A stretch of 64,000 bases of DNA from Candidatus Lambdaproteobacteria bacterium (GTDB taxonomy: Bacteria; SAR324; JACQKK01). The translations under genes were made by a program, and so were the position numbers. Below are positions 4,528-57,253 of the stretch, piece by piece. The stretch lies in NCBI GenBank assembly GCA_016204605.1, contig JACQKK010000005.1:3802-67801 (forward strand), read 5' to 3'. The notes under the pieces are model-generated. The model had not been told where the DNA came from and did not search any database. It saw nothing but the letters and a program-made list of their open reading frames with translations. Positions within the stretch are counted from its first letter, which is position 1; the number at the start of each line of letters is the position of its first letter.

Positions 4528-4815
4528 CTACCCGCCCTTGATGGCGTCGCGGAGGGTACGGTTGATGCGGGTCTGCCAGCCGGCGCCGGTCGCCTTGAAG
4601 TGTTCCAGCACGTCGTGATCCAGGCGCAGGGTGACCTGCTCCTTGGTGGGGGCCTTTTGCGGGCCGCGCTCCCCCGGTTTTCGCTTCGGCAGCACGGTGA
4701 CGAGGTCGGCCGGCAGCACGTCGGCAGGCGGGCGGAAGCGGCGGATGTCGGCGCGGGTCAGCTCCCGCACCTCGCCCGCTTCATTCGTCAGGGGCTTCTC
4801 GAGTTTCTTGCGCAT
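4528..4815 (-). CDS. brnA: BrnA-type antitoxin (type II TA)
   Basis: MRKKLEKPLTNEAGEVRELTRADIRRFRP...VTLRLDHDVLEHFKATGAGWQTRINRTLRDAI. The C-terminal RHH-like signature is characteristic of BrnA. It overlaps the 3' end of brnT by 35 nt, in toxin-first order. Confidence 0.85.
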   Translation of the reverse strand: MRKKLEKPLTNEAGEVRELTRADIRRFRPPADVLPADLVTVLPKRKPGERGPQKAPTKEQVTLRLDHDVLEHFKATGAGWQTRINRTLRDAIKGG

Positions 4816-5068
4816 GGCGACGGACCTCGCGTTCGTTGGCTTTTCGGAAGCTGATGAGGCGCACCCCACCGGGGATGGGCGTGAAACAGATCACGTGCAG
4901 CCGGTTGCCCAGATGGCCGATAGCCACGAACCGGCGTTCCGTGTAGGCCCGGCGGGTGTCTTCCCGGTATGTCGCGGTCTCCCACTCGAATTCGGCTGCC
5001 AGGACGTACGGCAGGTCGCGCTCCAGGGCGTTCCGCTCGCTCTTGGCCGGATCGAATTCGATCTTCAC
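4781..5068 (-). CDS. brnT: BrnT-type toxin (DUF497 family)
   Basis: MKIEFDPAKSERNALERDLPY...RFVAIGHLGNRLHVICFTPIPGGVRLISFRKANEREV is the typical BrnT pattern. GTG start at 5068. Confidence 0.85.
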   Translation of the reverse strand: MKIEFDPAKSERNALERDLPYVLAAEFEWETATYREDTRRAYTERRFVAIGHLGNRLHVICFTPIPGGVRLISFRKANEREVRRHAQETREAPDE

Positions 5069-22982: not shown

Positions 22983-24062
22983 ATGAGCACCACCCACCGC
23001 ATCGCCGTGATCCCGGGGGACGGGATCGGCGTGGAGGTCGTCACCGAGGGCATCCGGGTGCTGGATGCCGTGGGCGCGGCGATCGGCGTCCGCTTCCAGT
23101 GGGACTGGAAGGACTGGTCCTGCGCGCGCTATGCGAAGACGGGGGCGATGATGCCGAAGGACGGCCTGGCCACGATCGCCAACCACGATGCGGTGTTCCT
23201 GGGCGCCGTGGGCTGGCCCACCGTGCCCGACCACATCAGCCTGTGGGGGCTGCTGATCCCCATCCGCCGGGAGTTTCAGCAGTACGTCAACCTGCGCCCG
23301 GTGCGCCTGCTGGAGGGGGTGCCGAGCCCCCTCGCCGGCCGCAAGCCCGGGGATATCGACATGCTGATCGTACGGGAGAACTCCGAGGGCGAGTACTCCA
23401 ACATCGGCGGCATCCGCAACGAGGGGCGCGACGACGAGGAGTGCTGGCAGGAGACCCGCTTCACCCGGCGCGGGGTGGACCGCATCCTGCGCTTCGCCTT
23501 CGGGCTGGCGCGCGCGCGGCCGAAGAAGCACCTCACCAGCGCCACCAAGTCGAACGGGATCGTCCACACGATGCCCTACTGGGACAAGCGCTGGGAGGCG
23601 ATCCACGCGGAGTACCCGGACGTCAGGACCGACAAGTTCCACGTCGATATCCTGACCGCCCACTTCGTGCGCAACCCCCACTGGTTCGACGTGGTGGTGG
23701 GCTCGAACCTGTTCGGCGATATCCTCTCCGACCTGGGCCCGGCGGTGACGGGGACGATCGGCATCGCGCCCTCGGCCAACATCAACCCCGAGCGCACGTT
23801 CCCCAGCATGTTCGAGCCGGTGCACGGCTCCGCGCCCGACATCGCCGGCAAGGGCATCGCCAACCCGATCGGGCAGATCTGGAGCGGCGCCCTGATGCTC
23901 GACCACCTCGGCCACCCCGAGGCGGCCCGCGTGGTCGAGCGCGCCATCGAGGCCACCCTGCGCGACAGCGACGTGAAGACGCCCGACATGGGCGGCAAGG
24001 CCAACACCGTCGAGCTGGGCCAGGCCATCGAGCAGGCCGTCAGGGCCGCCCTCAGGCGCTAG
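22983..24062 (+). CDS. Tartrate dehydrogenase/decarboxylase-like (isocitrate/isopropylmalate dehydrogenase family)
   Basis: HRIAVIPGDGIGVEV...PDHISLWGLLIPIRREFQQYVNLRPV...VRENSEGEYS...TSATKSNGI...SNLFGDILSDLGPA..GTIGIAPSANINP...FEPVHGSAPDIAGKGIANPIGQIW matches TtuC-type enzymes closely. Confidence 0.88.
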   Translation: MSTTHRIAVIPGDGIGVEVVTEGIRVLDAVGAAIGVRFQWDWKDWSCARYAKTGAMMPKDGLATIANHDAVFLGAVGWPTVPDHISLWGLLIPIRREFQQYVNLRPVRLLEGVPSPLAGRKPGDIDMLIVRENSEGEYSNIGGIRNEGRDDEECWQETRFTRRGVDRILRFAFGLARARPKKHLTSATKSNGIVHTMPYWDKRWEAIHAEYPDVRTDKFHVDILTAHFVRNPHWFDVVVGSNLFGDILSDLGPAVTGTIGIAPSANINPERTFPSMFEPVHGSAPDIAGKGIANPIGQIWSGALMLDHLGHPEAARVVERAIEATLRDSDVKTPDMGGKANTVELGQAIEQAVRAALRR

Positions 24063-24364
24063 CGGCGCCCCGTTCCCCGCCGCGCGGGAATCCGCGCCAT
24101 CGACCAGCGGCCCCGGGGATCCAGCGCGCCGGTCTGCTCCCTGCGGCAGCGGAAAGAGCACCGGCTGCGGGGGGGGGGTGGGGTGGCGCGGACGGTCGAA
24201 GTCCTGTCCTCGTCCCGCCCGACTGTGGTAGAGAGGAAGCGAGGCGCGCCCGCGGGTCGGGGCGGCGTGATCCGGAACTTGGCGGCGAAGCGTTTCGGGC
24301 GCGATTCCGGTCGGGGTCGTCGAGGCCCGTGCCTCATCGTCGGACACACCGAGGGGGACGGCGG

Positions 24365-25264
24365 ATGGACTACGTTCGCTATATCGACAAGACCCGCGAG
24401 TACTACCGTGGGCTGGGCTATACGCGCTCCTACCAATGGGCACACTACGAGGGCGCGCCGTTCACGCCGCTGCGCAAACCCTTGGCGGAATGTCGGGTGG
24501 CGCTGGTTTCCACCGCGGGCTTCACGCTCGTGCCGGAGGGCGGATTCAGTGCGGAGGAGCTGGCGCGCGTCAAGACCGGCGGCTCGAACGTGGGTTCCTA
24601 CGCGCTGGAGGTGTGGCCCATCCCCAGCGAGATCGCAGAAGACCGGATCCTATACGTGGTGGCGAATCACGACCGCTCCCAGAGCGACATGTCGGACGCC
24701 AACACGTTCTTTCCGGTGACCCGGCTGCGGGAGTTCCGGGACGAGGGCGTGCTGGGCAGCCTCGCCACGAACTTCTATCGCCTCAAGGAGAATTACAGCC
24801 AGCGCAAGACGGTGGAGGTGGACGCGCCCGAGGTGTTGCGCCTGCTAAAGGCAGACCGGGTGGATGCGGCGCTGTTGAGTCCCGTCTGACCGGTCTGCCA
24901 CCAGACCGTGAGTCTGGTCGCCCGGCACCTGGAAGCCAACGGCATCGCGACGGTCACCTTCAGCAATGCCCGCGACATCACCGCGAGTGCCTGCAATCCC
25001 CGCACCGTGTTCACCGATTATCCCCTCGGCAATGCCTGCGGCCGGCCCCACCAGCGCGAAAACCAGCGCGAGGTGCTCCGGACGGGCTTCCGCCAGCTCG
25101 AAAGCGCGACGGAGCCCGGCACCATCGTCGACACGCCCTTCCGGTGGTCGGCCGACGAGGAGTGGAAACGGCTGGTCTTCACGAATGAGCGCCCCTGGCT
25201 CAGCGAACAAGCGGAAGCGGAACGCCGCGCGATCCTGGAACGGAACCGGTCGGCGCGCCCATGA
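24365..25264 (+). CDS. GrdB/PrdB-family (glycine/sarcosine/betaine/D-proline reductase B-like) selenoprotein. In-frame TGA at 24887-24889 read as Sec
   Basis: Two same-frame ORF pieces (..24889 and 24908..25264) join into ...LLKADRVDAALLSPV-U-PVC-HQTVSLVARHLEANGIATVTFSN.... The U-x-x-C sits where this family carries its Sec/Cys redox centre. The N-terminal half has family-like VALVSTAGF and FFPVTRLREFRDEGVLGSLA. A hairpin follows the UGA. Confidence 0.8.
24891..24918 (+). promoter_or_regulatory. Candidate bacterial SECIS hairpin(s) for the UGA at 24887
   Basis: There are two mutually exclusive 7-bp stems. One is ACCAGAC-CGUGA-GUCUGGU (24900-24918, with GU in the loop, starting 11 nt after the UGA). 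The other is CGGUCUG-CCAC-CAGACCG (24891-24908). Confidence 0.5.
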
Positions 25265-25277
25265 CGAGAGCCCTGCC

Positions 25278-25508
25278 GTGAAACACGTGATCGTCTACAC
25301 CACCCCGTTCTGAGCGCCCTGCGCGGCCCTGAAGACGTATCTGGCCGACAAAGGCGTGTCCTTTGAGGAACGGGACCCGATGGTCGATCCGGCAGCCGAG
25401 GCCGAACTGGCCGCACTCGGCCTCTATTCCACGCCGGTGACGCTGGTCGACGGCGAAGCCATCTTGGGGTTCGATCCGGATGCACTGGATCGGGTGTTGA
25501 CCCCGTAG
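25278..25508 (+). CDS. Glutaredoxin-like (thioredoxin-fold) selenoprotein. In-frame TGA at 25311-25313 read as Sec
   Basis: (V/M)KHVIVYTTPF-U-APC-AALKTYLADKGVSFEERDPMVDPAAEAELAALGLYSTPVTLVDGEAILGFDPDALDRVL. This is the classic small-Grx layout, with the first Cys of CxxC replaced by TGA. GTG start 13 nt after the GrdB-like stop, with GAGAG 8 nt upstream. A weak stem CGGCC/GGCCG (25324-25347) follows the UGA. Confidence 0.75.
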
Positions 25509-25516
25509 CCCCGCAC

Positions 25517-25562
25517 CCACCCCGAGGCGGCCCGCCTGCTCGAGCGCGCCAGTGCGGCCACC
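25517..25562 (+). repeat. Direct repeat / decayed copy of the 3' end of the dehydrogenase gene (compare 23912-23957)
   Basis: ccaccccgaggcggcccgcCtgCtcgagcgcgccaGTgCggccacc against ccaccccgaggcggcccgcGtgGtcgagcgcgccaTCgAggccacc. About 41 of 46 nt are identical by hand count. Both read HPEAAR(V/L)(V/L)ERA..AT in frame. Confidence 0.7.
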
Positions 25563-25612
25563 GTCAGGAGGTCCGGGCGCCGGGATTACGCGCCCTCTGC
25601 CGGGAGCGCCCC

Positions 25613-26839
25613 TCAGAACAGCTCCCGCACGAAATGCCGGGCGCGGCGCACGACGCCCGGCCGGGGGCCGTGCGTCGGGGTGCGCTCGGCGACCATGTGG
25701 TAGGCCTGCAATACGTTGTGGCCAAAGGCGTAGGCGCCGCTCCACAAGTACAGCCAGAACGCCCGGTACACCTGCTCGCCCCAACGCCGCAGGATCATCT
25801 CCCGGTTGGCCTGGAAGCGCTCCGCCCAGTGGCGCATGGTCAGCATGTAGTTGTGGTTGTCCTGCACCACCTGGCGCGGCATGAACCCGTGGAACAGCAT
25901 CTCCTGGATCACGTCCTGCAGACACATGTAGCTGTGAGTGCCGGGGTAGATGTAATGGCGGATATATCGGCTCACGGCATACTTTTCCAGGTCCGCCGAG
26001 GCGTCCATGTAGATCAGGCCGCTCGGCTTCAGAAGCTCCCACGCCCGCTGGAAGAACTTGCGATAGTAAGGGATGTGCTCGATCACGCCCAGGATGACGA
26101 TCGCGTCGTATGGCTTCTCCGCCTTGTGGACGAGAAAGTCCTCCTGCAGCACTTCGCCGGGGTACTTCTTCTCCGTGAGCAGCCGCTGAATATGGGCGTA
26201 GGAGTCGTTGGCGAGCGTCAGGCTGGTGACGTGGACATCGCGGGGCCCGCAGTAGCGGGTCACGCCGCCCCAGCCGGCGCCGATATCCAGCACACGCATG
26301 CCGGGCTTCAGTTGCGCCCAGTCGTACATGGTCTCCAGCTTGCGCTCACAGGCCTTTTCCAGCGACTCATCATCCGTCTGGAAGAATCCGTGGGAATAGA
26401 GATGGTAATCCGTATCGATGAAGCAGAGGAAGAAATCGTCGCCGAACTCGTAGTGGTGCTGGATCGCCTTCTTGTTGACCTTGGTGGGCGCCTGGATCAG
26501 TTGCTGGGCCCAGAAGTGAAGTTTAGGCGTCAACCCGCCGAGCGCATGCTTCAGGCGGGTACGTATATCGAAAAACGTCAGCATATCGCCTTCAATGTCG
26601 AACTCGCCGTTCACGAAGGAAGTCCCCAGCGTAAACTCGTCGGGGCCCTTGGCGAGGACGCGGTCCGTATGAAGGGTCACGCGGAACTTCGGGGCGCCGC
26701 TCCCGAAGCGTAGCGCCTTGCCATTGGCCAGGACGACTTCACACGGAACGTCGAAATCATTCAGCATGCGCTCGACGCGTTCGGTCACCTTCGTGCGGGA
26801 AGCAGAGGGTTCCTGTTCCGCAGTGGCGGATGAAAGCAT
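25613..26839 (-). CDS. cfa: Cyclopropane-fatty-acyl-phospholipid synthase family SAM-dependent methyltransferase
   Basis: HHYEFGDDFFLCFIDTDYHLYSHGFF...VLDIGAGWGGVTRY...YDAIVILGVIEHI...IYPGTHSYMCLQDV...HWAERFQAN matches the CFA-synthase/mycolic-acid-methyltransferase family. ATG at 26839. Confidence 0.85.
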   Translation of the reverse strand: MLSSATAEQEPSASRTKVTERVERMLNDFDVPCEVVLANGKALRFGSGAPKFRVTLHTDRVLAKGPDEFTLGTSFVNGEFDIEGDMLTFFDIRTRLKHALGGLTPKLHFWAQQLIQAPTKVNKKAIQHHYEFGDDFFLCFIDTDYHLYSHGFFQTDDESLEKACERKLETMYDWAQLKPGMRVLDIGAGWGGVTRYCGPRDVHVTSLTLANDSYAHIQRLLTEKKYPGEVLQEDFLVHKAEKPYDAIVILGVIEHIPYYRKFFQRAWELLKPSGLIYMDASADLEKYAVSRYIRHYIYPGTHSYMCLQDVIQEMLFHGFMPRQVVQDNHNYMLTMRHWAERFQANREMILRRWGEQVYRAFWLYLWSGAYAFGHNVLQAYHMVAERTPTHGPRPGVVRRARHFVRELF

Positions 26840-27295
26840 GGGTGCTCTCGTGATTGCTGGTGAAGGTGTGGCGGATCGGCCGTCCGATTCGCAATGCCCG
26901 ATCCCTCTAGCGGTGCTCTGTCCATCATGGACACGGCATACAGTCACGGCCCTTGCGCGTCCAAGCGCTCCGCGCCCGTGACGTCGCAAGCGGCGGGCTG
27001 ATCGCGCGCACCTCGGCGTGATGGTTCCCCCCTGCGGCGGTTTTTGCACAGTGGAGCGCCGGATGTAAAGAGGCCCCTCCCGGCGATGCCCCCGGCAACC
27101 GACCGGCCAGCCCGAATCCGGCGCACCGGCGGGGCCTTGCAGGCTGCCCGCCGCCACGCCGCGATCGCGGCCATACGCGAGTTACCCAACGAGATCGGCG
27201 ACTTCCTCACCAATGAAAAGCCGAGCGGCCTGCTTCGAGAACGCCTACGTCTCCACAATCGCTACAAGCCGAGTCGACGTGAAGTGGGCTGCGGC

Positions 27296-27315: not shown

Positions 27316-28275
27316 TCAGAGCTGGCGGAACCCCCCGGGCGGTGACCCCCTCATATCCCCCACCGTGGCATAGCCGATCATCTTGTACACCAGCCTTGCG
27401 GCGAGGAAGTCGGCGGCGTGGAGGCCGGGCAGGGGAGCGAACTCGGTCAGGTCCAGCCCGACAATCCTGCGGCGGGCGCTGACCGCACGGAGCAGGCGCA
27501 GGGCGGGGTACCAGCCCAGGCCGCCGGGGACGGGGGTGCCGGTGGCGGGCATCAGCATCCCGTCCAGCCCGTCGATGTCGCAGGTGATGTAGACCTCCGG
27601 GCCGAGGCGCGCCACCACCTTCTCGATCCAGCCCAGGTCGCTGCGGGCGCAGATGTCGTGGGCCCAGAACACGTTGCGCTCGAGGCCGGTCTTGCGCAGG
27701 AACTGGCGCTCCTCGACCGAGAGGGCGCGGATGCCCACTTGCACGAACGGCAGCCCCAGCTCGTGGGCGCGGGCCATGATGCTGGCGTGGCTGTAGGGCG
27801 TGCCGCCGTAGCTCGGGCGCAGGTCGGCATGGGCATCGATCTGGAGCAGCGAGAAGGGCCGTCCGGCGCGCCGCTCCAGCAGCGCCGTCCACACGCCGTA
27901 GCTGAGCGAGTGCTCGCCGCCGAGCGCCACCAGCAGCTTGCCCGCGCCCAGGGGCTCGCGCGCGGCGGCGTGGATGCGGCGCATGGCCTCCTCGGGCGTG
28001 GCGCCAGCGCACCCGACCGGCGGGAGGGTGGCGAACCCGACCTCGTCCACGCACCAGTCGAGCTCCTCGTCGTACATTTCGAGCTGGCCCGAGGCGGCCA
28101 GGATCGCCGCGGGGCCGCGCGCGGTGCCCCCGCCGTAGGAGATGGTGCCCTCGTAGGGCACGGGCAGGATCGCCACGCGCGCCTCGGCGTAGGGCACCAC
28201 CCGGGCGTCGGGGGCGGCGAAGGCGGGCAGCGAGGCGGGGTCGGGCGGGCTGCTCATGTCAGGCGGGATGCTCAT
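27316..28275 (-). CDS. speB: Agmatinase (arginase/ureohydrolase family)
   Basis: LLQIDAHADLRPSYGGTPYSHASIM...YITCDIDGLDGMLMPATGTPVPGGLGW shows the arginase-family metal-binding motifs. It lies directly downstream of speA. Confidence 0.88.
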   Translation of the reverse strand: MSIPPDMSSPPDPASLPAFAAPDARVVPYAEARVAILPVPYEGTISYGGGTARGPAAILAASGQLEMYDEELDWCVDEVGFATLPPVGCAGATPEEAMRRIHAAAREPLGAGKLLVALGGEHSLSYGVWTALLERRAGRPFSLLQIDAHADLRPSYGGTPYSHASIMARAHELGLPFVQVGIRALSVEERQFLRKTGLERNVFWAHDICARSDLGWIEKVVARLGPEVYITCDIDGLDGMLMPATGTPVPGGLGWYPALRLLRAVSARRRIVGLDLTEFAPLPGLHAADFLAARLVYKMIGYATVGDMRGSPPGGFRQL

Positions 28276-28311
28276 GGCGGGCTGCGGCGAGGGTAACGGG
28301 GGCCGGACGGC

Positions 28312-30330
28312 TCAGCGCCAGGCGATCGCGCGGGCGGGCGGCTTCGGTGCGCGGCGGCGGGCGGATTTTCGCGCGGAGCTGCCTGCGGCGCCGCGCCCGG
28401 TGCCGGCCTCCGTGCCGGGTTCGCCGCGGGCGTCGAGGTAGGTCATCCCCTGGAGCCCGGTGGCGTAGAGCGTGCGCAGCGTCTTGCCGTCCGCGGCGGT
28501 CATCAGCCCCGCCTTGACGGCGGCCTGCACCTGCCGCGCGATGCGATCCATCAGCGTGTCCGGGCTGAACTGCACATAGCCGAGCACGCGCGCGACGCTC
28601 TCCCCGTGGATGATCTGCTCGTAGCGCCAGGTGCCGTCCTCGTTCAGCGCCACGTGGATGGCATCGGTATCGCCGAACAGGTTGTGGATGTCGCCGAGAA
28701 TCTCCTGGTAGGCCCCCGTGAGGAACACGCCCAGGTAGTACGGCTCGCCGTTCCGGAGCGGGTGCAGGGGCACCGAGGTCTTGTCGGGGAAGCGCCCGAT
28801 GTAGCGCTGGATGCGGCCGTCGGAATCGCAGGTGATGTCCTGCACGATGCCGTGGCGGGTGGGGTGCTCGCGCAGCCGGTGCAGCGGCACGATCGGGAAC
28901 TGTTGGCCGATGGCCCAGGAATCGGGCAGCGACTGGAACACCGAGAAGTTGCCGAAGTACTTGTCGGCCAGCAGCTCGTCCAGCCGGGCGAACTCCGCCG
29001 GGCGGCGCTCCGGCCGGGCCAGCCGCACCACCCGCGTGGCGATCTTCCAGAACATCTGGTCCGCCCAGGCCCGGTGGTGCAGCGAGAGCAGCCCCAGCTC
29101 GAAGCGCTTGCTGATCTCGTCGCGCGCATCGAGGGCATCGTGCCAGGCCTCCTCCGCGTTGCGCGCGGTCAGCCGCTTGCGCAGCTCGTCGAGCTTGAGC
29201 ACGACGTCGGGCGCATCGGGCCCGGGCGGCGGCAGGGGCTGCTCGGTGTCGAGCGCGGCGGTGTCGAGCACGTTGATCGCCAGCATGGCGTGGTGCGCCG
29301 TCAACGCCCGCCCCGATTCCGTGACGATGTTGGGGTGGGGCAACCCCTCGGCGCGGCAGGTTTCGGCGAAGGTCGCCACCACGTCGTTGGCATACTCTTG
29401 CTCGGTGTAGTTGATGCTGGAGGCGGCGTTGCTGCGCGTGCCGTCGTAGTCCACCCCCAGCCCGCCGCCCACGTCCACGAAATCCACCGGGCAGCCGAGC
29501 TTGCACAGCTCCGCGTGGAAGCGCGCCATCTCGCGCAGGGCCTGCTGGATGCGGCGGATGTTGGTGACCTGGCTGCCGATATGGATGTGGATCAGGCGGA
29601 AGCAATCGAGATAGCCGGCAGCGCGCAGGCGCTCCACCGCCTGCTCCAGCTCGAGCACGGTCAGGCCGAACTTCGAGTGGTCGCCGCCCGAGTCCTCCCA
29701 CTTGCCTTCGCCCGCGGTGACCAGCTTGATGCGGATGCCGAGGTGCGGGCGGATGCCCGTCTCGCGCGCCTCCTGCAGGATCAGCCCCAGCTCGGCCGGC
29801 TTCTCGACGACCAGGAACACCGTCTTCCCCAGGCGCTGGCCCATCAGCGCCAGCCGCACGTAGGCCACATCCTTGTGGCCGTTGCAGACGATGATCGGCT
29901 CGGGCTGCTCGTGCAGGGCGAGCACGGCGTGCAGCTCCGATTTCGAGCCGGCCTCGAGCCCCATCCGGAACTCGGCACCGAAGCGCACCACCTCCTCGAC
30001 CACCTGCCGCTGCTGGTTGACCTTGATCGGGTACACGCCGAAGTAGGCGCCCGTGTAGCCTTCGGCCTCGATGGCGTTGACGAAGCACTGCCGCAGGTGG
30101 GCGACGCGGTCGTACAGGATATCGGAGAAGCGGATCAGGAGCGGCAGCGACAGCCCCTGCGCCTGGGCATCCTCGACCAGGTGCCGCAGGTCGATGCCGA
30201 TGGCGCTGTCCTTGCTCGGATGTGCCTGGAGATTGCCCTTGCCGTTGACGCTGAAGTAGCCGAGCCCCCAATCGGCGAGGCCATAGAGCCGCGCGGAATC
30301 CTCCGCCGTCCACTTCTTCTTCCCGCCCAT
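28312..30330 (-). CDS. speA: Biosynthetic arginine decarboxylase
   Basis: MGGKKKWTAEDSARLYGLADWGLGYFSVNGKGNL...GVYPIKVNQQRQVVEEVV...HIHIGSQ...VDVGGGLGVDYDG is typical of SpeA. ATG at 30330. It has an unusually basic 35-40-aa C-terminal tail. Confidence 0.9.
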   Translation of the reverse strand: MGGKKKWTAEDSARLYGLADWGLGYFSVNGKGNLQAHPSKDSAIGIDLRHLVEDAQAQGLSLPLLIRFSDILYDRVAHLRQCFVNAIEAEGYTGAYFGVYPIKVNQQRQVVEEVVRFGAEFRMGLEAGSKSELHAVLALHEQPEPIIVCNGHKDVAYVRLALMGQRLGKTVFLVVEKPAELGLILQEARETGIRPHLGIRIKLVTAGEGKWEDSGGDHSKFGLTVLELEQAVERLRAAGYLDCFRLIHIHIGSQVTNIRRIQQALREMARFHAELCKLGCPVDFVDVGGGLGVDYDGTRSNAASSINYTEQEYANDVVATFAETCRAEGLPHPNIVTESGRALTAHHAMLAINVLDTAALDTEQPLPPPGPDAPDVVLKLDELRKRLTARNAEEAWHDALDARDEISKRFELGLLSLHHRAWADQMFWKIATRVVRLARPERRPAEFARLDELLADKYFGNFSVFQSLPDSWAIGQQFPIVPLHRLREHPTRHGIVQDITCDSDGRIQRYIGRFPDKTSVPLHPLRNGEPYYLGVFLTGAYQEILGDIHNLFGDTDAIHVALNEDGTWRYEQIIHGESVARVLGYVQFSPDTLMDRIARQVQAAVKAGLMTAADGKTLRTLYATGLQGMTYLDARGEPGTEAGTGRGAAGSSARKSARRRAPKPPARAIAWR

Positions 30331-30596
30331 GCCTCCCTGCCTTGCGCCCCTCGTGGCGAGGCCCGTACCGCGGCCGGTCGTCACGACACTATACGGACGC
30401 GGGCGCCGAAACGCAAAGCGGCGGGCGGCCCAGCACAGGTGTCGCTTTCCACTGAGCCGCGGTGCTGATAGAGTGAGCCCACTTGCACCCCAGCCCAGAG
30501 GCGCGGCCGCGCGGTCAGAGTGCGGCGGCCACTGGGCCGGCTGGCCGCCGGCGGCGCTGGGGCGGCACGACCGCAGTCCAACGGGACGACGATGCG

Positions 30597-30812
30597 ATGG
30601 CGAAAAAGATCGAGTTGACGTCGGAGCAGGAATCGCTCTGGCATGAGCTGTGCGCATCGGTCGAGATCGACCCGCACTGGCTCCTCAACGCGCTCAATCA
30701 GTATTACGATCTGGCGGAACGGTACGGGATCATGGAGCTGGACGACGAGCTGCTGCGCACCAAGCACAACTTCGGCTGGATCGAGTACGCCGTGTTCTGG
30801 AAATTCGAGTAG
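30597..30812 (+). CDS. Hypothetical small protein (71 aa)
   Basis: MAKKIELTSEQESLWHELCASVEIDPHWLLNALNQYYDLAERYGIMELDDELLRTKHNFGWIEYAVFWKFE. The composition looks protein-like and I recognise no family. The SD is weak. Confidence 0.4.
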   Translation: MAKKIELTSEQESLWHELCASVEIDPHWLLNALNQYYDLAERYGIMELDDELLRTKHNFGWIEYAVFWKFE

Positions 30813-36866: not shown

Positions 36867-37685
36867 TCAGCGCAGCGACTCGCGAAACCAGTGCAGCTCC
36901 GACTCGCGCAGGTCGCTGACGAACATGTGGCCGGGGGCGTGGGTGATGGCGAGGGGCAGCTTCGCCCGCAGCAGCGCCTCCTGGGGCGTGACGCCGCAGG
37001 CCCAGAACACGGGGAGCTCCCCCGCCTCGATCGGCACGGGGTCACCGTACTCGGGGCGGGCCAGGTCGGCGATGCCGATCGCCGCCGGCTCGCCCTGGTG
37101 GATGGGCGCCCCGTGCACCTCGGGGAAGGCGCCGGTCACCAGCGTGGCCCGCAGCGCATCGGCGGGCCGGAACGGCCGCATCGAAACCACCAGCGGACCG
37201 GAGAACGGCCCCGCGCTGCGGCAGGGAATCGACGTGCGGTACATGGGCACGTTGCAGCCGCAACGCAGGTGGCGCACCTCCAGCCCCGCCGCGAGCAGCG
37301 GCTGCTCGAAGCTGAAGCTGCAGCCGAGCAGGAACGACACGAAATCGCCGCGCCACAGGTCGCGCACCTCGCTGCGCTCCTCGCTCATCACCCCGTCGCG
37401 GAACACCCGGTAGCGGGGCAGATCGGTGCGCAGATCGGCGCCCGGCGCCAGCCGGGGCGGCGCCGTCGCGCCTGCCTCCACCACCTCCAGCAGCGGGCAG
37501 GGCTTGGGGTTGCGCTGGCAGAACAGCAGGAAATCGAACGCCGCCTCCCGCGGCACCACGACCAGGTTGGCCTGCACGTAGCCGGGCGCCTGCCCGGAGG
37601 TCTGGCCGGTGAAGCGCCCGGCCCGGATCTCGCGGCGAAGCGCCCGCGCCGATGCCACTGCCCGTTCCAGCTCGACCGTGCCCAT
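36867..37685 (-). CDS. Putative hydro-lyase (DUF1445/UPF0317 family)
   Basis: [38 protein letters not shown]...[10 protein letters not shown]...[14 protein letters not shown]...NVPMYRT...LVVSMRP...HGAPIH...[11 protein letters not shown] matches this family's conserved blocks. Confidence 0.8.
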
Positions 37686-37968
37686 CTGCGCCTGCCCCGT
37701 ATGATGGCCCGCCACGATGGCCCCGTTGGACGACCCCGTGCCCATCCACGCTAGCATCCCCGCCCGCCCGCGGCCAAGAGGGCGCCGCGACCGGCGCACG
37801 GGGCGCCGCGCAGCGACGGAATCCGCGCGCTGCGCTCGTTCAACGGTGCACAGGTGGAATGGGCGCAGCGGGTACAGTTGGCGCGTGGAAAGGTGTAGGA
37901 TGGAGCGGATGCCCGATTAGCATCGGCCGCGCGGGGGCGCGACCGCCGCCGGTGGGGGGGCGGGCTGT

Positions 37969-47498: not shown

Positions 47499-47783
47499 AT
47501 GCGGATCGAGTTCGACCTGGCCAAGCGGACGATAACGCTCAAGAATCGCGGCTTGGATTTTCGGGATGCCGAGCACGTGCTTGCCGGGGAACAGTTTACG
47601 TTCCAAGACCTTCGCCAGGACTATGGTGAGCCCAGGTTCATCACCATCGGGTACCTCGATGAGCGGATAGTCGTTATCGGATGGACGCCGCGCAAACACG
47701 ACGGGGAAACCGTGTGCCGGGTGTTTTCCATGAGGAAAGCCAGTGAAAAAGAAATCGCGCGCTTTCAAGAGCGACTTCGCTAA
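47499..47783 (+). CDS. brnT: BrnT-type toxin (DUF497 family), second copy
   Basis: MRIEFDLAKRTITLKNRGLDFRDAEHVLAG...RFITIGYLDERIVVIGWTPR...RVFSMRKASEKE. Confidence 0.85.
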   Translation: MRIEFDLAKRTITLKNRGLDFRDAEHVLAGEQFTFQDLRQDYGEPRFITIGYLDERIVVIGWTPRKHDGETVCRVFSMRKASEKEIARFQERLR

Positions 47784-48078
47784 AGTCGACGCCACCCGCG
47801 GTATGCCGGACGAGGAGTTGCCGGAAATCACCGACGACATGCTGGACCGCGCCGTGTATAGCGTCGGCGGCACCGTGCTGCCCACACCACGCCGAAGGGG
47901 GCGTCCCTCGGGCACCGGCAAGAAGGTAGCCACCACGATCCGTTTCGACCGCGACGTGGTCGCAGGCTTTCGCGCCCTCGGTCGCGGCTGGCAGACGCGG
48001 ATGAACGAAGCCCTGCGCGACTGGCTCAGCACTCATGAGGGTGAAACCAAGCCCCGGCAGACCCCTCGCGCGGGGTAG
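47743..48078 (+). CDS. brnA: BrnA-type antitoxin, second copy
   Basis: ...KKVATTIRFDRDVVAGFRALGRGWQTRMNEALRDWL. Overlaps brnT by 41 nt. Confidence 0.85.
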   Translation: MKKKSRAFKSDFAKVDATRGMPDEELPEITDDMLDRAVYSVGGTVLPTPRRRGRPSGTGKKVATTIRFDRDVVAGFRALGRGWQTRMNEALRDWLSTHEGETKPRQTPRAG

Positions 48079-48542: not shown

Positions 48543-48824
48543 CTATCGGTGGTAGTCCACGATTTCTACGTCGTACGCCCCGTCGTCGCGCCACTCGAAG
48601 CAGATGCGCCACTGGTCGTTGATGCGGATGGACCATTGTCCTTCCCGGTCGCCGTGGAGCTTCTCCAACCGGTTGCCCGGCGGAATATTCAAGTCCGATA
48701 CCCTGCCGGCCAGGTGCATCTGGTAGAGCTTGCGCGCGGCCGGCGCGGCGATGGCCCGGAACCGCCGCACCGGCTCCCCCGCGGCCAGCGTCTCCGTATC
48801 CTTGTCCGCAAAGCTCCAGATCAT
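48543..48824 (-). CDS. higB: HigB-type toxin (RelE/ParE superfamily, killer protein)
   Basis: MIWSFADKDTETLAAGEPVRRFRAIAAPAARKLYQMHLAGRVSDLNIPPGNRLEKLHGDREGQWSIRINDQWRICFEW. Confidence 0.88.
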   Translation of the reverse strand: MIWSFADKDTETLAAGEPVRRFRAIAAPAARKLYQMHLAGRVSDLNIPPGNRLEKLHGDREGQWSIRINDQWRICFEWRDDGAYDVEIVDYHR

Positions 48825-48843
48825 GGTGCGCCCGGTTTTCCCC

Positions 48844-48872
48844 ACGCTATGACGCCGGACGTCACGTGTCAA
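48844..48872 (-). promoter_or_regulatory. Putative higBA promoter with an operator palindrome in the spacer
   Basis: Gene orientation reads TTGACA cgTGACGTCCGGCGTCA TAGCGT. The spacer is 17 nt. The 15-nt palindrome TGACG-nnnnn-CGTCA (48850-48864) fills it. Confidence 0.5.
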
Positions 48873-48923
48873 TGGGCCGATCGGTGCAACGTCTGCGTCC
48901 GCGGCGTCGGGCGAACTGCCGCC

Positions 48924-56329: not shown

Positions 56330-57253
56330 TCAAGGCAGGCCGCGGGCGCGGAGGAGCCGCAGCAACGCGTCGACCTGCGCCTCGACCCCGTGTTCGGCCG
56401 GCACGATGGCGCCGCCGGAGGCGGGCGGGGCCGCCAGCAGGGCGTCGATGCGCGCCTCGGGCGGCAGCGCCGGGTCCGCGGCGGGCAGGCGCCTGACGCG
56501 CGGGACAGGGTCGCGCAGCCGCACCTCCCCGGCCAAGGGCATCTGGCCGGGCGCCGTGGCCAGCCGGATCGACGCCGTGCGGCTCGCCAGCCACGCAGCG
56601 AGCGACGGCACGGGCTTTGGCGCCGGCGGCCCGGCCCAGGTGACGACCGCCGGCAGGGCGAGCTCGAGCGCCTGCCCGTAGCCCCGCTCCAGCTTGACGC
56701 GCACGCGCCAGCCGCGCGGCACCGGGGCGATCTCTTCGGCGCGGTGGGCGAAAGCGGCGCCCAGGGCGATCGCGAGGGCGGCGCCGAAGCTCTCCGTCCC
56801 GAAATCGGCGCTGCGCGCCCCGGTCAGGACCAGCGCGGGCGCCCATTCCGCCAGGGCGGCTGCGGCCGCCACGGCATGGGCGCGGGCGCGGGCGGTCGTG
56901 GGCGCCGCGGGGGGACCCGCCTCCCAAGCCGGGTTCCACACCCGGATCGCCTCGTCGGCGCCGGCGGCCAGGGCTTCGCGCAGCGTCTCCTCGTCGCCGG
57001 CGGGGCCGACCAGCAGCGCCAGCAGGCGCGGCGCGGGCGGCGGCAGGCGTTCGCGCAAGGCCAGCGCGGCGCCGAGCGCGGCCGCGGCCGCGGGGTCGGT
57101 CACGCGGATCGCCTCCTCCCCGCGCACGCCGACGCCCTGCGGGCCCAACCGGATCGGCACCCTGGGGCTCGCCACCCGCGCCAGGCACACGGCGAGGGGC
57201 GGCGGCGGGCGATCGCGGGAGGGCACGGAGCGAGATGGCACAGAGCGGGACAC
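56330..57253 (-). CDS. Electron-transfer-flavoprotein beta-subunit-like protein (divergent)
   Basis: The layout follows ETF-beta/FixA: AALGAALALRE...LLALLVGPAGDEETLREALAAGADEAIRV...ALVLTGARSADFGTESFGAALAIALGAAFA...LPAVVTW. The N-terminus is atypical and carries a SRSVP-SRSVP repeat. No ETF-alpha gene is nearby. Confidence 0.55.
   Translation of the reverse strand: MSRSVPSRSVPSRDRPPPPLAVCLARVASPRVPIRLGPQGVGVRGEEAIRVTDPAAAAALGAALALRERLPPPAPRLLALLVGPAGDEETLREALAAGADEAIRVWNPAWEAGPPAAPTTARARAHAVAAAAALAEWAPALVLTGARSADFGTESFGAALAIALGAAFAHRAEEIAPVPRGWRVRVKLERGYGQALELALPAVVTWAGPPAPKPVPSLAAWLASRTASIRLATAPGQMPLAGEVRLRDPVPRVRRLPAADPALPPEARIDALLAAPPASGGAIVPAEHGVEAQVDALLRLLRARGLP

Follow-up and report, generated by a model that had tools for sequence, protein, structure and literature searches.

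Two open reading frames (ORFs) on the forward strand of a 64,000-nucleotide stretch of Candidatus Lambdaproteobacteria (SAR324) DNA, from contig JACQKK010000005.1 and here called the window, lie in the same frame and are separated by a TGA codon at 24887-24889. Does that codon end a gene, or does the UGA of the mRNA specify selenocysteine (Sec) in the middle of one protein, and, if the latter, what kind of enzyme would the protein be? The best explanation of the whole, with a probability of roughly 80%, is that 24365-25264 is a single gene for a 299-residue selenoprotein of the GrdB/PrdB superfamily, and that its product is an orphan reductase re-reduced by a redoxin. The gene is a further member of a family catalogued since 2005, whose motif and selenocysteine insertion sequence (SECIS) are already published. 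New here are the comparative proof of the SECIS, the recognition of a two-selenoprotein cassette with a glutaredoxin (Grx)-like partner, and leads pointing to an activated acid as substrate.

A single reading frame across the UGA

An ATG at 24365-24367 opens a frame of 174 codons that ends ...LLKADRVDAALLSPV at the TGA; 6 nt ahead of the ATG is a Shine-Dalgarno-like GAGGGGGA (24351-24358, + strand), read from the sequence and putative in function. After the TGA the frame resumes unshifted as PVCHQTVSLVARHLEANGIATV... and runs to a TGA stop at 25262-25264, and decoding of the internal codon would place Sec at residue 175. The stretch following the UGA has coding-type composition in the PrdB-like frame only (GC at codon positions 1/2/3 = 0.66/0.53/0.85), and its comparison over 110 codons with the Sec-form relative from locus L002 gives 35 synonymous and 18 amino-acid differences. 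As synonymous differences exceed amino-acid differences against Sec-form relatives, the post-UGA frame is under purifying selection. A scan of 23900-25800 for promoters and terminators found nothing. The initial annotation had joined the two fragments into one frame and foreseen that ordinary gene callers would split them; both points hold, with a single 299-codon gene that has the TGA inside and public calls on an identical 7.4-kb contig that give separate ORFs of 174 and 118 amino acids.

For searches the joined protein was written with C in place of U. The Pfam GRDB model (PF07355) matches residues 18-171 with 27.3 bits against a gathering cut-off of 22 and stops just short of the Sec column. 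The best NCBIfam match is PrdB (TIGR04483), with E = 6e-28 over residues 33-263 and so spanning the UGA. A search of 5.8 billion proteins returned 2792 matches, the closest of which (63-82% identical; the nearest named ones are SAR324 metagenome-assembled genomes, MAGs) are all 173-176 amino acids long and end L-[ST]-P-V. Full-length relatives, of 291-342 amino acids and ~40-50% identity, have Cys at the Sec column and continue C-P-V-C-H-Q-T-[IV]-S-L-V-A-R-H-L-E-A-N-G-I, with CPVCHQT[IV]SLVARHLEANGI found across the Cys forms. From 1.84 billion cluster representatives a profile search retrieved 219 clusters at E <= 1e-30, and since many of these end at the Sec column or begin just past it, those are split annotations.

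Collection of 99 gene-bearing loci gave 90 distinct sequence contexts, in which the codon at the Sec column is TGA in 28 and TGC or TGT in 62. The MAGs with Sec forms are labelled SAR324, Acidimicrobiia, Dehalococcoidia, Methylomirabilia, Myxococcota, Syntrophus, and alpha- and gammaproteobacteria; Cys forms were found in Bradyrhizobium and Bordetella. Genuine prdB genes, fetched from the Terrisporobacter prdA-prdB operon and from Peptoclostridium acidaminophilum, have their TGA in the same alignment column as the window TGA (LLTAG-U-GTCHRS in prdB versus LLSPV-U-PVCHQT in the window), and of the residues invariant after Sec, C178, H179, R187, E190, G193, R213, P220, G222 and Q234 are common to PrdB. 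The UGA at 24887-24889 (+ strand) is accordingly aligned with the Cys codons of the Cys forms, the TGA of the Sec forms and that of genuine PrdB. Family identity, a U-x-x-C redox centre of the PrdB kind, Cys-containing homologues with their Cys at this column and the continuation of homologues beyond it had all been proposed or set as checks at the outset, and each was found: the PrdB model and the above-threshold GRDB score for the first, the shared Sec column followed by x-x-C-H for the second, C-P-V-C-H-Q-T in the 62 distinct Cys loci for the third, and full-length relatives together with the model match to residue 263 for the last.

The hairpin 3′ of the UGA

A 7-bp hairpin 11 nt after the UGA had been put forward in the initial annotation as the SECIS. 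The stem is present, pairing 24900-24906 with 24912-24918 (ACCAGAC/GUCUGGU) about the loop CGUGA at 24907-24911. It begins at the 11th nucleotide after the UGA (13 nt from the T of TGA) and the loop at the 18th. Two more G-C pairs beyond a C.C mismatch lengthen the hairpin to 24897-24921 on the + strand, so that the element, as delimited comparatively, consists of G-C, C-G, the C.C mismatch, the 7-bp stem and the loop, and overlaps the codons H-Q-T-V-S-L-V. The bSECISearch criteria define the spacing expected between UGA and hairpin in a bacterial SECIS. As in bacterial SECIS elements, the stem-loop is just 3′ of the UGA and its apical loop has G/U.

What identifies the hairpin is the way in which it separates Sec from Cys forms. 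The 19-mer ACCAGAC-CGTGA-GTCTGGT occurs in 27 of the 28 Sec forms and in none of the 62 Cys forms (Fisher p = 4e-22, distinct loci). At the six third-codon positions that the hairpin covers, conservation is 100% among Sec forms and 0.68-0.89 among Cys forms; at the flanking third-codon positions of the Sec forms it reaches only 0.32-0.82. The Val codon is GTG in 28/28 Sec versus 2/62 Cys forms and the Ser codon is AGT in 28/28 versus 6/62, despite the high GC content of the window (70.5%). Because the Sec-form proteins are only 42-60% identical to the window protein after Sec, the identity of the 19-mer reflects selection rather than recency.

Covariation was assessed on 35 Sec sequences, nine of them taken from the supplement to the 2005 Sargasso Sea study. 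Across these, 99% of cells are paired; pair 24904/24914 is G-C in 29, A-U in five and G.U in one, the A-U version arising in Sargasso members through the synonymous changes CAG to CAA and CUG to UUG, and the covariation score was reached by 0 of 500 shuffles. The mismatch itself seems to be selected: a G at 24919 (+32 from the T of TGA, following the 3′ arm) would pair with C24899 and close it, and this base is C, T or A, with G in 0/28 Sec forms, while 22/62 Cys forms have a GTG codon at the site. Fold z-scores are -0.55 for 60 nt, -2.45 for 39 nt and -3.3 for 27 nt (-12.6 kcal/mol), and in sequence so GC-rich folding energy alone is weak evidence; it is the comparative data that are decisive. 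A lower CCGG/CCGG helix (24890-24893 with 24922-24925) predicted for the window alone was set aside, being unconserved and 58% paired. An Rfam scan of the window at gathering thresholds matched no SECIS family, and the only hit was a thiamine pyrophosphate (TPP) riboswitch.

Judged by these comparisons, the hairpin at 24897-24921 is the SECIS, frozen at synonymous sites where it accompanies UGA and decayed where UGC or UGU takes its place, and UGA 24887 is recoded to selenocysteine. If the UGA were instead an ordinary stop, or the result of a nonsense mutation, there would be a 174-residue fragment with or without a separate 118-residue product initiated at GTG 24908, just as gene callers annotate two ORFs, and the lack of visible Sec machinery within the window would be no surprise. 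Such an origin would leave unexplained why 28 distinct loci, drawn from several phyla, all have TGA at this one codon, and likewise a downstream 19-nt element conserved only in the TGA loci, purifying selection on the frame that reads on through the UGA (...LLSPV-U-PVCHQTVSLVAR...), Cys at the UGA column in all full-length relatives and the same in-frame TGA arrangement in the neighbouring Grx-like gene, and it is scarcely credible.

A glutaredoxin-like selenoprotein encoded downstream

That neighbour, unmentioned in the initial annotation, starts at a GTG 14 nt past the stop codon of the PrdB-like gene and occupies 25278-25508 (+ strand, 76 codons). Its product reads VKHVIVYTTPF-U-APC-AALKTYLADKGVSFEE..., with the motif T-P-F-U-A-P-C, when a second UGA at 25311-25313 (+) is taken as Sec; this codon aligns with the Cys of the CxxC in Cys-form neighbours. 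The match to Pfam Glutaredoxin (PF00462) is 42.9 bits against a cut-off of 22.9. The best NCBIfam matches are TIGR02196 YruB (1e-17) and TIGR02194 NrdH, both below their subfamily cut-offs (64.5 versus 88.55 and 43.8 versus 85.75, respectively). Public gene calls retain just a 42-residue C-terminal fragment.

Throughout the clade to which the window belongs, the Grx-like gene is 3-30 nt downstream of the PrdB-like gene, and it was seen as a neighbour in SAR324, Acidimicrobiia, Methylomirabilia, Burkholderiales, Bordetella and alphaproteobacterial loci. The remaining neighbours vary and include a CMAS-type methyltransferase, glutathione S-transferase (GST), PhoH, an M20 peptidase and ABC transporters. 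When the 90 distinct loci are classed by the state of the PrdB-like and Grx-like genes, nine are Sec/Sec, seven Sec/Cys, 12 Cys/Cys and none Cys/Sec, with no such neighbour in 62; the second TGA is thus kept in nine distinct loci. Loci with no Grx-like neighbour belong mostly to the Bradyrhizobium-type clade (P-N-C-PVC) and to a Dehalococcoidia/Myxococcota-type clade, and a downstream redoxin sought in the latter, a Sec clade, was not found.

Sequence immediately 3′ of the second UGA, at 25314-25359 (+), is a moderately supported candidate for the SECIS of the Grx-like gene. RNAalifold pairs 25324-25329 with 25342-25347 as an inner helix. Seven Sec-form sequences mostly keep the inner CGGCC/GGCCG, and three pairs show compensatory changes; the z-score of the single-sequence fold is -1.0.

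Distance from the classical reductases

The PrdB model, though the best NCBIfam match, scores 97.8 bits against an equivalog cut-off of 300, and the broader subfamily model TIGR01918 also falls below its cut-off (39.9 versus 65.45). The protein B cut-offs (GrdB, GrdF, GrdH) are missed by far more, at 35.7 versus 602, 37.8 versus 800 and 44.6 versus 775, and the 299-residue protein covers only profile positions ~206 to 429 of these models. Pfam and NCBIfam scans of the 40 window ORFs supported by third-position GC found no Grd or Prd partner, GrdA, GrdC and GrdE included, and tblastn with PrdA and with the PrdH-like protein of L101 gave no match in the window or in ~100 related loci, whose flanks are free of Grd genes too. 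Both the absence of GrdA, GrdC, GrdE and PrdA partners and the conclusion drawn from it in the initial annotation, that this is not a classical glycine or proline reductase, are upheld: equivalog cut-offs are far off and no pyruvoyl partner is nearby.

The PrdB-like protein could still serve a classical reductase, of D-proline or of glycine/betaine, as its B subunit if PrdA or GrdE and the other subunits were encoded elsewhere in the genome, and its best NCBIfam match and its possession of the Sec column and following C-H of PrdB are what would be expected of one. Such a role is very improbable. Not only the score and an identity to PrdB of 27-28% but also the replacement of the GFMGGGG segment, the family-specific N- and C-terminal extensions and the lack of PrdA near any of the ~100 homologous loci are difficult to accommodate, and what is conserved next door is a redoxin gene rather than one for PrdA, PrdC or PrdH. 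Cys forms are present in Bradyrhizobium and Bordetella, which are aerobes not known to have Stickland metabolism. Given the lack of a PrdA or GrdE gene in the vicinity and the abundance of Cys forms, the proposed orphan reductase is unlikely to act on pyruvoyl-bound D-proline or glycine.

Fold, evolution and possible chemistry

The AlphaFold2 model of P0009, a Cys homologue with 47% identity, has an alpha/beta fold (predicted local distance difference test score, pLDDT, 89; predicted template modelling score, pTM, 0.89) with C-P-V-C at the N-terminus of helix 167-182, following strand 159-163. A CxxC at the start of a helix after a strand is the usual setting of a redox-active dithiol. No relative was found among solved structures by phmmer, profile search or Foldseek, the best Foldseek E-value being 0.058. 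In a neighbour-joining tree with 89 members of the family and PrdB as the root, Sec appears ancestral with ~4 changes of state, and the window is in an all-Sec clade; the tree is without support values and its sample not random. The pattern fits a single inherited SECIS that decayed after each replacement of Sec by Cys.

By analogy with PrdB, Sec175 and Cys178 (U-P-V-C-H) would form the redox centre. The selenolate may attack an electrophilic atom of a small substrate, as in PrdB, and Cys178 would resolve the Se-adduct to leave a selenenylsulfide. The 76-residue glutaredoxin/NrdH-like protein, through its U-A-P-C, could then re-reduce the selenenylsulfide, with thioredoxin reductase or glutathione as its possible source of electrons.

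With regard to substrate there are hints from gene fusions and neighbours. In the cluster representatives P0131, P0132 (805 amino acids) and P0134 an AMP-binding enzyme of the acyl-activating (ANL) type is N-terminal to a Cys-form PrdB-like domain with P-N-C-PVCHQ. A family-III CoA-transferase gene is directly downstream on the same strand in 12 loci from two separate Cys-form clades, after the Grx gene in L012, L017, L019, L023 and L087, for example, and straight after the PrdB-like gene in L067, L069 and L080-L082; L087 and L088 also have acyl-CoA dehydrogenase genes in the neighbourhood. The ANL fusions and CoA-transferase neighbours hint that the substrate is a carboxylic acid in activated form, either an adenylate or a thioester. 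The furthest extension of this, tentative and on balance unlikely, is that the PrdB-like and Grx-like proteins may be a self-sufficient two-selenoprotein reductase that would cleave a carbon-heteroatom bond reductively, as PrdB does, but with an acid presented as acyl-adenylate or CoA-thioester in place of an amino acid on a pyruvoyl subunit. If so, it would be an unrecognised class of enzyme, found widely among aerobic bacteria of soil and ocean and now mislabelled as proline or glycine reductase.

The chief functional competitor is a general antioxidant or thiol-disulfide relay, such as a peroxidase or a protein-disulfide or sulfoxide reductase, that has the PrdB fold and no dedicated C-X cleavage. 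The position of the U/C-x-x-C motif at a helix N-terminus in the P0009 model and the nature of the partner, a redoxin, suit a relay well, as do the frequency of natural Cys forms when PrdB U151C is dead, the GST gene upstream in L095/L096 and the SelO gene beside a Roseomonas Cys form. Residues D103, D111, R213, D218 and Q234, however, are polar, invariant family-wide, away from the CxxC and present also in PrdB, suggesting a defined substrate pocket, and the AMP-binding fusions and CoA-transferase neighbours point to metabolite chemistry. A relay is thus judged rather improbable, though less so than a classical B subunit.

Weight of the evidence and implications

Several considerations tell against an orphan reductase that depends on Sec and on the neighbouring redoxin. 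Neither the window nor 857 kb of sequence flanking related loci has selA, selB, selD or tRNA-Sec, and tblastn with E. coli SelA, SelB and SelD gave no match, so that Sec machinery is assumed, not seen. Covariation in the hairpin is limited to one base pair, and the five A-U sequences may represent one event. The redoxin partnership derives from synteny alone, and the partner is missing in two other clades of the family. The links to AMP-binding enzymes and CoA-transferases occur only in Cys clades, none in that of the window. Finally, inactivity of PrdB U151C alongside many natural Cys forms here argues for a chemistry other than C-N cleavage and less demanding, perhaps no more than an exchange of thiol and disulfide.

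At the level of annotation, the three public gene calls (174, 118 and 42 amino acids, the last a fragment) should give way to two selenoprotein genes, and hundreds of database clusters contain the same mistake. More broadly, an abundant selenoprotein family of the surface ocean lacks the pyruvoyl subunit by which proline and glycine reductases are defined. For experiments there are handles in the invariant SECIS, in the conserved redoxin partner and in the links to AMP-binding enzymes and CoA-transferases, and the existence of Cys forms in culturable, genetically tractable bacteria adds to these.

Other features of the window

The ORFs of a size appropriate for SelA, SelB or SelD proved to be MgtE, parts of ABC transporters and similar. 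A 90-nt 'tRNA-Pro(tgg)' called by ARAGORN at 56864-56953 was considered as a tRNA-Sec; it has no Rfam support, falls in a GC-rich ORF and is probably a false positive. The TPP riboswitch (RF00059, 70 bits) is at 1813-1922 on the - strand, upstream of ABC-transporter genes for an ATPase (945-1844) and a permease (44-1126). Three ORFs, at 4528-4890 (-), 47734-48078 (+) and 48543-48923 (-), may be toxin-antitoxin remnants: two are BrnA-like (antitoxin) and one is HigB/RelE-like (toxin). At 36867-37916 (-) an ORF matches the D-glutamate cyclase domain PF07286 with E = 3e-63.

Downstream of a CFA-synthase-like methyltransferase gene (25613-27157), the region 27316-30657 (-) has an agmatinase-like gene (Arginase family) beside a long ORF read by eye as biosynthetic arginine decarboxylase, and the two would form a polyamine pair. 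A CMAS-type methyltransferase gene flanks the cassette in L091 and L092 also, and tblastn at E <= 1e-10 shows no similarity of these to the window. On a plasmid of Roseomonas haemaphysalidis (L102, 5878-7350) a Cys-form member and a gene annotated as protein adenylyltransferase SelO are arranged tail-to-tail, a single case.

Comparison with known systems

Members of this family have been in view for two decades. The 2005 Sargasso Sea selenoproteome listed 42 'Proline reductase PrdB' genes with a UxxC motif, assigned to pfam07355 (Zhang, Fomenko & Gladyshev 2005, PMC1088965), and the Global Ocean Sampling (GOS) study of 2008, with 235 Sec and 110 Cys members, placed the family among the most abundant of selenoprotein families (PMC2398784). 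The marine 'PrdB' proteins of the PMC1088965 supplement have the same ...u-PVCHQTVSLVARHLE... motif as the window protein, and their SECIS is the same ACCAGACCGTGAGTCTGGT or an ACCAAAC/GTTTGGT variant; the supplement contains the PVCHQT motif 13 times and also the exact 19-mer. The marine organisms are low in GC, unlike that of the window. In the searched text of these two papers the family is filed under proline reductase, and neither the missing PrdA nor the Grx-like neighbour is discussed. A 2026 review still has PrdB under D-proline reductase, and its list of selenoprotein operons has no prdB-grx pair; no study of what the orphan PrdB-like family does emerged from a literature search.

Other Sargasso 'PrdB' subfamilies (u-PFCTRAV, u-PACTS.V and u-PRCTR.V; PMC1088965 supplement, parts 7-8) have different stems after the UGA. 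In most of them the loop region still contains CGTGA or CGTGT, which may be a shared motif for recognition by SelB.

NrdH/YruB-type and Grx-like selenoproteins have the Pfam Glutaredoxin domain and a U-x-x-C redox motif in common with the second protein of the cassette. Around Sec the Sargasso Sec-glutaredoxins read VFWQPH-U-TSC and the window protein VYTTPF-U-APC.

In PrdB of Clostridioides difficile the Sec is U151, the U151C mutant is inactive, and the scheme of attack by Sec and resolution by Cys is the model for the mechanism suggested above (PMC11229817). Homology between the window protein and PrdB of Clostridioides, Terrisporobacter and Peptoclostridium extends over ~230 residues, with the Sec column and the following x-x-C-H in common, and a 7-bp hairpin follows the UGA of genuine prdB at the corresponding position. 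The low identity noted above is accompanied by an extra conserved N-terminal segment (YIDKTREYY...YxWA) and a ~45-residue C-terminal extension in the window protein, and by RLKENYSQRKT where PrdB has GFMGGGG. PrdB loci have prdA, prdH and prdC, none of which is with the window gene, and the natural Cys forms common in the window family contrast with the dead Cys mutant of PrdB.

With GrdB, GrdF and GrdH (PF07355, ~430 amino acids) the window protein shares the U-x-x-C centre and aligns to the C-terminal half, the N-terminal half being missing. The GrdB motif is UxxCxxC (as quoted in PMC13188914), whereas U-P-V-C-H-Q-T has no third Cys. RefSeq entries from Bradyrhizobium, Bordetella, Burkholderiales and Roseomonas designated 'glycine/sarcosine/betaine reductase selenoprotein B family protein' are of the same family, at 42-50% identity, with C-P-V-C-H-Q-T for U-P-V-C-H-Q-T and the SECIS decayed at synonymous sites. 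The Bradyrhizobium-type clade has an N-terminal extension and the P-N-C-PVC motif and is without the Grx neighbour; the Cys forms of Burkholderiales and Bordetella retain the Grx-like gene downstream, as in the window.

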